Assembly (NCBI GenBank): GCA_032249235.1
Contig: JAVVGF010000003.1
Location: 128,001 to 192,000, forward strand
Direction of reading: 5' to 3'
DNA length: 64,000 bases
From: Thermoproteota archaeon
GTDB taxonomy: Archaea > Thermoproteota > Thermoprotei > Gearchaeales > Gearchaeaceae
Below, piece after piece: positions 42,187-44,452 of this stretch. The notes below the pieces were generated by a model. It was not told where the DNA came from, did not search any database, and saw nothing but the letters and a program-made list of their open reading frames with translations. Every line of letters begins with the position of its first letter. The first letter of the stretch is position 1. A program made the translations under genes and the position numbers.

Positions 42187-42220
42187 ATACTTTACTTAGT
42201 AAATTTATGAAGTAAAGTAT
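42187..42220. promoter_or_regulatory. Perfect 11-bp inverted repeat between the TATA box and doxX start; candidate HxlR operator
   Basis: ATACTTTACTT (42187-42197) and AAGTAAAGTAT (42210-42220), with nested palindrome TTTACTTAGTAAA. Confidence 0.6.
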
Positions 42221-42686
42221 GGACTTGAATATTTTGTTGGATCCTGTAAGAAATCCATTGTTGCTTGGCATTGCAGCAATAATCATAAGAGTATTCGTAG
42301 GTGCTTTGATGATAATACACGGTTATCCAAAGTTATTCGGTCCTTCTAGAAAAATGATGAGAGATAACATGAAGCAATTAGGAATTCCAGGATTCCTCTT
42401 CGATATTGCGGGGCTTCTCGAATTCATAGGAGGAATTGCTTTAATTTTTGGTTTCTTAACAAGGATTGCTGCTTTGCTTTTTGCTATAGAAATGATAGGA
42501 ACAACAATCATATACATAACAAAGCTATACAATGTGCCTATACCTAGAGGCTACATAGAACCAATGTTCAAGGCTACGAAAGGATACATTGGAGGTTGGG
42601 AATTGGATACAGTAATTCTAGCAGCATCCATTGCAATATTGATAATAGGTCCAGGAATTTTCTCAATCGATTACATAATTTTCTAA
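42219..42686 (+). CDS. DoxX family membrane protein
   Basis: RVFVGALMIIHGYPKL, EFIGG...GFLTR, GPGIFSID. Confidence 0.9.
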   Translation: MDLNILLDPVRNPLLLGIAAIIIRVFVGALMIIHGYPKLFGPSRKMMRDNMKQLGIPGFLFDIAGLLEFIGGIALIFGFLTRIAALLFAIEMIGTTIIYITKLYNVPIPRGYIEPMFKATKGYIGGWELDTVILAASIAILIIGPGIFSIDYIIF

Positions 42687-42699
42687 ATTTTTTAATTTC

Positions 42700-42762
42700 T
42701 TTTTTCCGGTCTCCCACTCATCGATCCCAACTGGGTACTCATGGGAGAGATCCTGCCTTCAC
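42700..42762 (-). ncRNA. Candidate K-turn guide sRNA (non-canonical H/ACA-like) antisense to the 16S rRNA 5' end
   Basis: Minus strand reads GGCAGGAUC-UCUCCCAU-GA-GUACCCAGUUGGGAUC-GAU-GA-GUGGGAGA-CCGGAA; arms complementary to UUCCGG-UU-GAUCCUGCC. Confidence 0.7.
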
Positions 42763-42814
42763 TATTATTTATTTTAAAACTTCTACTTTTTATTGTTTTT
42801 GATTAATTAATCAT

Positions 42815-44452
42815 GTGGAAATTGAAGGAAATATCATCGATGTATTTGAAGAAAAGATATTTACTGGAAGGATAGAAGTTGAAAGAAATAGAATTAAAAA
42901 GATAACTAAGATAAATAAAGAATTAAAAGAATTCATAACCCCTGGCTTTGTAGATGCTCATATTCATATCGAAAGTAGCTTGCTTTGTCCTAGCAGATTT
43001 GCAGAAGTTGTAGTACCTCACGGAACTATAGCAACAGTATCTGATCCTCATGAAATTGCTAACGTACTAGGAATTGAAGGAATAAAATATATGATAGAAG
43101 ATGCGAAAGAAGTACCTTTGAAGATTTTTTATACAGCACCTTCTTGTGTTCCAGCAACGGCATTTGAAACTAATGGTGCAGAATTAGATGCAATAGCTTT
43201 GGAAGAAATATTCAAACTAGAGAGAATAGTTGCGTTGGGCGAAGTGATGGATTTTGAAGCCGTCATAAATCGTGATAAATATATCATGGATAAAATTCAG
43301 CTAGCAAAAAAATTAGGAAAGAAAATTGATGGTCATGCGCCTTTACTCAGAGGAGAAAATTTAGTAAAATATGTTTCTGCAGGAATTGAAACAGATCATG
43401 AATCAGTATATTACGAGGAAGCTCTTGAAAAAGCGAAGTTAGGAATGAAAATAATGATAAGAGAAGGATCTACAGCTAAAAATATGAATGAGCTAATAAG
43501 ATTAGCCAAAGAAGATTATGAATGTTTTTTTGTTGGCGATGACGTAATCGTGACTGATCTTATAAAAGGGCATTTAGATTTGCTTTTGAAGAAAGCTGTT
43601 GAACTAGGATTGGATGAAATAAAAGCTTTAAAATGTGTAACTAAGAATCCTGTTTTGCATTATAATCTTCCTGTGGGTTTATTAAGAGAAGGAGATATAG
43701 CTGACTTTTTGGTATTAAATGATTTAAAGAATTTTAAAGTAGAAAAAGTCTTCATTGAAGGCGAATTGGTTGCGAAGAGTGATGAATGCTTATTCAAGAC
43801 AAAACCTAAGATAACAGGAAATACAATAAAAGCAGAATTGCTAAAAGAAGATAGGTTAAAAATAAATGCAAAAGGTAAAGAAGCTTTAGTCAATGTTATT
43901 GGTGTAATAGAAGATCAAATCATAACTAAACACCTAACAGAAAAGATGGAAATAAATAATGGAGAGATTAAGCCTGATGTGAGCAAGGATATTCTCAAAA
44001 TAGTTGTCGTTGAAAGATATGGATATGGAAACATAAGCTTGGGATTTATAAAAGGCTTTGGGTTGAAAAATTGTGCTATTGCATCATCGATTGCTCATGA
44101 TTCACATAATATAATAGCTGTAGGAGATCGAGACGATTTAATATGTAAAGCAGTTAACATGCTAATTTTAAGAGGAGGTGGTTTATCATATTCAAGCGAC
44201 GAAGAAGTAGATGTATTAGAATTACCTATTGCCGGCCTTATGAGTGCTGAAGAACCAGCACGTGTTTCAATGAAGCTAGAAAAATTGCATGAAAAGTTAT
44301 ACAAGAAAGGCAGCAAATTAAGAAATCCTTACATAACCTTATCTTTTATGAGTTTGCTTGTAATACCTGAGCTAAAAATAGGTGATAAAGGGCTTTTTGA
44401 CGTTAATAACAAAAAATTTATTCCTCTAGTTAAAGAGGTCCGTAATAATTAA
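42815..44452 (+). CDS. ade: Adenine deaminase (AdeC type)
   Basis: DAHIHIESS, DPHEIANV, LGEVM, DGHAP, TDHE, IREGS, AHDSHN. Confidence 0.93.
   Translation: MEIEGNIIDVFEEKIFTGRIEVERNRIKKITKINKELKEFITPGFVDAHIHIESSLLCPSRFAEVVVPHGTIATVSDPHEIANVLGIEGIKYMIEDAKEVPLKIFYTAPSCVPATAFETNGAELDAIALEEIFKLERIVALGEVMDFEAVINRDKYIMDKIQLAKKLGKKIDGHAPLLRGENLVKYVSAGIETDHESVYYEEALEKAKLGMKIMIREGSTAKNMNELIRLAKEDYECFFVGDDVIVTDLIKGHLDLLLKKAVELGLDEIKALKCVTKNPVLHYNLPVGLLREGDIADFLVLNDLKNFKVEKVFIEGELVAKSDECLFKTKPKITGNTIKAELLKEDRLKINAKGKEALVNVIGVIEDQIITKHLTEKMEINNGEIKPDVSKDILKIVVVERYGYGNISLGFIKGFGLKNCAIASSIAHDSHNIIAVGDRDDLICKAVNMLILRGGGLSYSSDEEVDVLELPIAGLMSAEEPARVSMKLEKLHEKLYKKGSKLRNPYITLSFMSLLVIPELKIGDKGLFDVNNKKFIPLVKEVRNN

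Follow-up and report, generated by a model that had tools for sequence, protein, structure and literature searches.

What is the GC-rich island that interrupts an AT-rich gap between two plus-strand genes of this genome, and on which strand is it read? The island lies in the window, by which we mean the whole 64-kb stretch of DNA (64,000 nucleotides) that was analysed, in a 128-nt gap between the plus-strand genes for DoxX (42219-42686) and adenine deaminase (42815-44452). Its GC fraction was 0.517 at 42700-42759 compared to 0.18-0.30 on both flanks, in agreement with the original prediction, which had described a GC-rich island in an AT-rich gap. Read on the minus strand from 42757 to 42706, it consists of a 9-nt arm (GGCAGGAUC), an 8-bp stem, a K-turn, a CCC-AGUU-GGG tip and CCGG, followed by AA. 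In a K-turn, tandem sheared G.A pairs extend one helix, a 3-nt bulge comes next and the second helix opens with a G-C pair; here the tandem G.A pairs are formed by 42740-42739 facing 42719-42718. The parts that had been named from the letters (the arms, the 8-bp stem, the tandem G-A, the GAU bulge, CCC-AGUU-GGG and CCGGAA at 42709-42704) were all recovered exactly as claimed. Along the minus strand we assign the following features; alignment A1 and model R2, which are named with some of them, are described below.

42758 to 42762, minus strand: putative 5' leader GUGAA; the transcript start may be near 42762.
42749 to 42757, minus strand: 5' guide arm GGCAGGAUC, complementary to G10-C18 of the genome's own 16S rRNA and equal to the RF02807 consensus.
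42741 to 42748, minus strand: 5' strand of the 8-bp stem, UCUCCCAU, from the sequence, the fold and covariation in 34 sequences.
42739 to 42740, minus strand: G-A on the non-bulged K-turn strand, aligned with the G.A pairs of RF02807 and R2.
42723 to 42738, minus strand: K-turn C-stem and tip, with the pair G42738-C42723, internal U.U and A.A, and the loop AGUU.
42735 to 42733 with 42728 to 42726, minus strand: apical helix CCC:GGG; this helix 2 covaries in the family.
42720 to 42722, minus strand: 3-nt K-turn bulge GAU, of which the U and the next G-A form UGA, invariant in A1.
42718 to 42719, minus strand: G-A on the bulged K-turn strand, from the sequence, the RF02807 alignment and A1.
42710 to 42717, minus strand: 3' strand of the 8-bp stem, GUGGGAGA, from the sequence, the fold and covariation; the last stem pair is U-G.
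42706 to 42709, minus strand: 3' guide arm CCGG, pairing with C4-G7 of the genome's own 16S rRNA; CCG is invariant in A1.
42687 to 42705, minus strand: A-rich 3' tail, without an ACA box and without a partner for a lower stem.

In the fold the flanks of the hairpin were unpaired and no lower stem was seen, and an ACA box was not found in the 3' tail, where ANA triplets are uninformative within the A-run; the absence of both a lower stem and a correctly spaced ACA had been noted in the original prediction. In canonical H/ACA RNAs the lower stem measures 7-9 bp and the ACA follows the upper stem at a distance of 14-16 nt (Toffano-Nioche et al. 2015; PMC4652768), and with both missing the element was rejected as a canonical archaeal H/ACA sRNA. 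No clear oligo-U terminator was seen 3' of the element on the minus strand. A TATA-like, A/T-rich stretch lies ~24-32 nt upstream of the putative leader, in surroundings that are AT-rich throughout. The spacer at 42764-42800, from the sRNA to the start of the adenine deaminase gene, is likewise AT-rich, with TATA-like runs that are usable in both directions, and part of its arrangement (AAUAAAAA..., then UUUU.AAAAU) was also found upstream of the copy in the same-genus genome G001. The folding energy was unexceptional (z = -1.31 for the minus strand and -0.77 for the plus strand), so the case for a functional RNA rests on homology and covariation instead. The pair of arms at the observed spacing has a single occurrence in the window, and none of 100 shuffles produced it.

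A gathering-threshold Rfam scan of the whole window gave no match. Based on a permissive scan of 42600-42900 we found that RF02807 (Pyrobaculum sRNA 209, typed H/ACA, for which Bernick et al. 2012, RNA 18:402, is reportedly the source paper) aligns to the element over model positions 1-65, with both arms identical and the GA/UGA of the K-turn in register. This alignment reached 27.5 bits, with E 0.0021 for the 301 nt searched, compared to a gathering score of 42. In a scan of 120 genomes of the class with stricter filters the same model gave 42-86 bits in 26, almost all of them from family f4, and did not recover the element. We read this miss as narrowness of a Pyrobaculum-only model, because a broader model without the element's own lineage, R2, scored it at 45.3 bits. 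Two models were built. Alignment A1 (22 rows) and model R1 combined the RF02807-type matches with structured pattern matches from other families, and R1 found members outside its seed in the window's order (G011, G006, G007 and G004), in the same class (G017) and in another class of the phylum (G216, G195 and G209). R2 was rebuilt from 30 sequences, none of them from the window's family f1, as a guard against circularity. Searched against the window, R2 matched the element and nothing else (E 8.5e-10; the next best match scored 7.9 bits, E 2.1), and it gave 45.0 bits for G001, 37.8 for G006, 33.9 for G007 and 26.4 for G004. The match in G009 (19-20 bits) lacked the K-turn hairpin and was left out of the member count.

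Simpler searches were less informative. BLAST of the 86-nt element against 61 relatives returned two matches only, one in G001 (E 6.9e-7) and a partial one of 31 nt in G055 (E 2.6e-4), and at the latter a regex scan found no arm plus stem. The arm pattern alone was rejected as a test of membership: it matched 35 of the 120 class genomes and a reversed control matched 37, so by itself it carries no information in GC-rich genomes. We read the 46 places where it occurred as approximately 10 K-turn hairpins, approximately 11 antisense readings of 16S 5' ends, and otherwise what look like chance matches or coding sequence. Box C/D sRNAs are defined by a C box (RUGAUGA) and a D box (CUGA), with the K-turn formed at the ends of the RNA. 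A box C/D identity, including a U3-like one, was rejected, as the element has GAUGAG only, inside the hairpin, and lacks CUGA; the best match of a box C/D model to it reached 10 bits (E 7.6).

The comparison with known RNAs was closest for Pyrobaculum sRNA 209 (RF02807, PyrR209), with which the element shares an identical 5' arm (GGCAGGAUC), an identical 3' arm (CCGG), a single K-turn hairpin (GA ... UGA), an A-rich tail and the absence of a lower stem and ACA. It differs from this RNA in its GC content (45% compared to about 60-75%), in its stem (8 uninterrupted base pairs, compared to 6 bp, a bulged A and a further 1 bp in the Pyrobaculum consensus), and in an apical stem of 3 bp rather than 5; the two come from different orders of the same class.

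Conservation of the stem was assessed in an alignment of 34 sequences that was fitted to the model, which favours structure. In this alignment 88.7% of the cells were standard pairs compared to 66.5% in shuffles, a value that none of 500 shuffles reached, and double changes were present at 11 of the 12 pairs. The covariation score was 0.548, and at most 0.104 when the partners were slid by 1-3 columns. MAFFT and the covariance model shift the K-turn and tip of the window's sequence by one column, and thus the counts per pair slightly understate the pairing. The 5' arm was unchanged in 21 of the 22 rows of A1, the remaining row reading GGCGGGAUC, and the G-A columns of the K-turn (42739-42740) were nearly invariant. 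Covariation of the stem between near-fixed arms, as the original prediction had expected of relatives, was therefore found, and what did not follow was an Rfam match above the gathering score or presence throughout the order. In the same-genus genome G001 the stem UCCUCCAC:GUGGAGGA differs from UCUCCCAU:GUGGGAGA by two double compensatory changes and a change from U-G to C-G, while the 5' arm and GAUGA are unaltered. The gene order HxlR-DoxX-sRNA-Ade is the same in G001 as in the window, and the flanking proteins are 71-73% identical.

Outside the genus the homologues stood in unrelated gene contexts and their arms were still complementary to 16S, as expected for a free-standing sRNA gene. Clear members were found in 6 of the 12 genomes of the order, with G009 doubtful. 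No member was found in the other six. Two of these, G002 (90% complete) and G003 (74% complete), belong to the same genus as the window's genome; in both, the region upstream of ade has a different neighbour and the element is absent. Among the sampled genomes credible members came from seven GTDB families in two classes (f1, f2, f4, f5, f11, f12 and f33).

We then asked what the arms would pair with in the organism itself. The assembly comprises 1.43 Mb in 18 contigs and is 91% complete. A search of all of it with the archaeal SSU model (RF01959) gave no 16S match, because the 16S gene is broken up between the edges of two contigs (C4:1-299, L120, and C10:1-55, L119). A search of the genome for the 9-mer GGCAGGATC returned five sites, two of them at contig edges, which are the two ends of the 16S gene. 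Contig C4 begins inside the 16S gene, and its reverse reading gives the 5' end ACCCCGGUUGAUCCUGCCGGAC plus the preceding flank. The genome's own 16S 5' end, taken from this contig edge, is ACCCCGGUUGAUCCUGCC, and is identical in G001. The 5' flank of the 16S gene on C4 is a near-perfect inverted repeat of the sequence after its 3' end on C10, and the two presumably form the pre-16S processing stem.

Against this 16S 5' end the 5' arm paired at 9 of 9 positions (G10-C18) and the 3' arm at 4 of 6, CCGG pairing with C4-G7 only, while A42705-A42704 face C3 and C2 and stay unpaired. The claim of perfect pairing by arms of 9 and 6 nt thus stood for the first arm and not for the second. The target UUCCGG that it had assumed for the host was seen in G195, a genome of another class, and not in this 16S. 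Exactly UU, namely U8-U9, was left between the two arm duplexes, as had been claimed. Among the five genomic GGCAGGATC sites the bipartite target was present at one, the organism's own 16S 5' end. The 3' duplex comprised 3 bp in G001 and G007 when each guide was paired with the 16S of its own genome, and 3 bp also in G195, where 16S starts with AUUCCGG. As duplexes of 3-4 bp recur in these genomes, the short 3' duplex seems to be characteristic of the family and not a sign of decay. The look-alike RNAs of the other class (G195, G209 and G216) have CCG only as their 3' arm, and 16S in those genomes starts with AUUCCGG or AAUCCGG.

Two further observations concern the 16S sequences of this family. 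In f1 (G000, G001, G002 and G007) the 16S 3' tail reads ...GCGGCAGGAUCACCUC (C10:41-49, L119; L109, L110, L111), which contains the 9-mer GGCAGGAUC of the guide 5' arm and so the perfect complement of 16S G10-C18; G009, from a sister family, has GGCCGGAUC in its place. In G002 the 16S 5' end (L110) is ACCCCAGUUGAUCCUGCUGG, a paired change relative to G001 (G6 to A and C18 to U) that would disrupt the 3' duplex formed by CCGG; searches of this genome, which is 90% complete, recovered no guide.

RNAs of this design have been described before. In the H/ACA-like RNAs of Pyrobaculum described by Toffano-Nioche et al. 2015, a K-turn is embedded in the hairpin and two free strands form a pseudo-pocket (PMC4652768). 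Li, Wu and Ye 2024 (NAR 52:4644) purified Cbf5-bound RNAs from S. islandicus and reported four atypical guides without lower stem or ACA, one of which, the bipartite guide sR109, makes 16S psi-8 as judged by deletion and in vitro assay (PMC11077068). According to these authors, sR109 binds L7Ae and Cbf5-Nop10, the activity of the atypical RNP depends on L7Ae and Gar1, deletion of sR109 leads to slower growth, and the homologous site in P. aerophilum is said to have been predicted earlier for an atypical guide (PMC11077068). They also find that atypical guides work with proteins of S. islandicus and of P. furiosus (PMC11077068).

Based on these comparisons, we consider it about 85% probable that the minus strand carries, at approximately 42762-42690, the gene for a single-hairpin atypical H/ACA guide of 65-75 nt, of the Pyrobaculum sR209 and S. 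islandicus sR109 kind. The original prediction of a non-canonical pseudouridine guide of the Pyrobaculum type is supported by the full-length RF02807 alignment, by the R2 match and, by analogy, by the psi-8 activity of sR109. By the published description, the element resembles sR109 in its atypical H/ACA design and in a bipartite guide directed at 16S U8. The genome encodes Cbf5 (with TruB_N, TruB_C_2 and PUA domains), Nop10, Gar1 and two L7Ae-family proteins, and we read the element as the organism's psi-8 guide because U8 is the first unpaired U and genes for all four proteins are present. The stem of 8 bp plus two G.A pairs gives 10 layers, matching the reported H/ACA length: of 15 productive archaeal H/ACA folds, 14 have exactly 10 layers between the pocket and the second G.A, and 8-13 layers are reported for H/ACA-like RNAs (PMC4652768). 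With canonical H/ACA RNAs of the Pyrococcus Pf9 type the element thus shares an upper-stem K-turn, ten layers, a bipartite guide that leaves U-N unpaired and the same four proteins, and it differs from them in having neither the 7-9 bp lower stem nor the ACA. Among the points that stand against the guide reading are the RF02807 score under gathering, the unexceptional folding energy, the six genomes of the order in which no member was found, and the shortness of the 3' duplex, which has just 4 bp with the host 16S. The more stable and critical guide duplex is, according to Li et al., the 3' one (PMC11077068).

By homology with the validated S. islandicus RNA, transcription, protein binding and modification of U8 would be expected here too. 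L7Ae would bind the K-turn formed by the tandem G.A pairs and the GAU bulge, and the ten-layer stem would take up Cbf5-Nop10-Gar1. Pairing of the two free arms with 16S, the 5' arm GGCAGGAUC at G10-C18 and the 3' arm CCGG at C4-G7, would then leave U8 and U9 unpaired at the foot of the stem, where Cbf5 could convert U8 to pseudouridine.

The Cbf5 gene itself was found in two overlapping frames on contig C4 (L113:1175-1420 and L113:1339-2154), namely an 81-aa N-terminal piece that ends just past HSGTL and a 271-aa frame with TruB_N, TruB_C_2 and PUA. An intron in the cbf5 mRNA is known in Crenarchaeota, and the split frames resemble it. Li et al. also mention two exon-encoded Cbf5 fragments (PMC11077068).

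The 16S 5' end is also where a chaperone could act, as the original prediction had proposed. Eukaryotic U3 snoRNA is a box C/D RNA that chaperones the 5' end of 18S and the central pseudoknot; its 5' domain pairs with the ETS and with 18S, and no modification results. The element is like U3 in pairing with the 5'-terminal region of the small-subunit rRNA, and unlike it in being H/ACA-like and without a D box (CUGA), whereas U3, as a box C/D RNA, has a different set of proteins. It is unlikely, though worth naming, that the RNP is bifunctional, so that besides making psi-8 it would also clamp the 16S 5' end in a U3-like way by its 9-bp arm. If this were true, the guide and the 16S 3' end, which in f1 carries the same 9-mer GGCAGGAUC, would be rivals for the 16S 5' end, and the guide might thereby set when helix 1 and the central pseudoknot form, or when joined 5' and 3' precursor ends are resolved; a 3' duplex of 3-4 bp would fit binding that matters more than catalysis.

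Quite improbable, in our judgement, is the stronger form, in which the RNP is mainly or only a clamp or chaperone of 16S G10-C18 (helix 1 and central pseudoknot) and pseudouridylation is absent or secondary. The strong and invariant contact is indeed the 9-bp 5' arm, the U-loading 3' duplex is 3-4 bp in f1, and competition for the 16S 5' end by the f1 16S 3' tail is possible. The slower growth after sR109 deletion (PMC11077068) could stem from lost modification or from lost binding, and according to a 2026 preprint one yeast H/ACA snoRNP combines modification with scaffolding (10.64898/2026.03.20.713187). Nevertheless, sR109 directs psi-8 at the same site in vivo and in vitro (PMC11077068), the stem length and the two unpaired U residues fit the catalytic geometry (PMC4652768), and no chaperone effect of an archaeal H/ACA RNA was found in the literature examined.

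The psi-8 guide would be transcribed from the minus strand, whereas both neighbouring genes are on the plus strand. We therefore also weighed a plus-strand hairpin that would serve as DoxX 3' UTR or terminator, or as leader or operator of the adenine deaminase gene, its 16S match being coincidental. The RNA data bear on this. One 114-nt metatranscriptome contig spans 42648-42762 at a depth of 3.1; it is unstranded, has no other letters apart from one left-out base in an A/T run, and extends into the DoxX 3' end. A second contig covers 42575-42677, and none covers 42765-42826. The spanning contig could be plus-strand RNA or DNA carry-over; its end at 42762, 5 nt ahead of the arm, is where a minus-strand transcript might begin, and DNA contigs also break nearby. 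The continuity with DoxX is in favour of a plus-strand reading, and the plus strand folds too (-15.6 kcal/mol). In spite of this we regard that reading as very improbable. On the plus strand the G-U pairs would turn into C-A, including the one at columns 13/72, the closing pair, where G-U is the commonest pair (15 of 34 sequences). The G.A/G.A signature of the K-turn exists on the minus strand only, and outside the genus the 16S-complementary arms are found next to unrelated genes. Archaeal termination occurs at T-runs, and T-runs are already present between the DoxX stop and the hairpin. Least probable of all is a chance GC-rich hairpin or a decaying, unexpressed relic, for which the non-significant folding z-score, the RF02807 score under gathering and the lack of the element in some close relatives can be cited, but which is contradicted by the shuffled arm pairs, by the independent R2 match, by the covariation in 34 sequences, by arms and K-turn that are kept alongside compensatory stem changes in G001 despite flanking proteins of 71-73% identity, and by the listing of no other letters in 42700-42762 for runs X7, X9 and X10 (X11 being without cover) while the flanks vary.

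The kind of RNA, its target and its mechanism are already in print (PMC11077068), and the novelty that the original prediction implied was overestimated. What is new is a member in an uncultured, AT-rich hot-spring lineage, earlier reports of atypical H/ACA guides being from Pyrobaculum and, in 2024, S. islandicus, together with a first sketch of the spread of the family. Li et al. leave the distribution of atypical guides in other phyla to be investigated (PMC11077068), and the literature that we searched yielded no survey of the distribution of the atypical psi-8 guide. As the Pyrobaculum-only Rfam model misses most members, R1 and R2 could seed a broader family.

The members also indicate variation that the RNP apparently tolerates, namely a 3' guide of 3-6 bp, A.A for A.G at the second K-turn pair and an 8-bp stem that is perfect instead of bulged; the known mechanism is left unchanged by it. 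On its non-bulged strand the K-turn has AA and not GA, so that the second K-turn pair is A.A, in L090, L093, L094 and L095 (G001, G006, G007 and G004) and in L139 and L140 (G195 and G209). In G006, G007 and G004 the stem has 7 bp, with an extra unpaired A ahead of CCG. The RF02807-type RNAs L054 and L057 (G057 and G113) have an altered 5' arm (…UAGGAUC) with different preceding letters.
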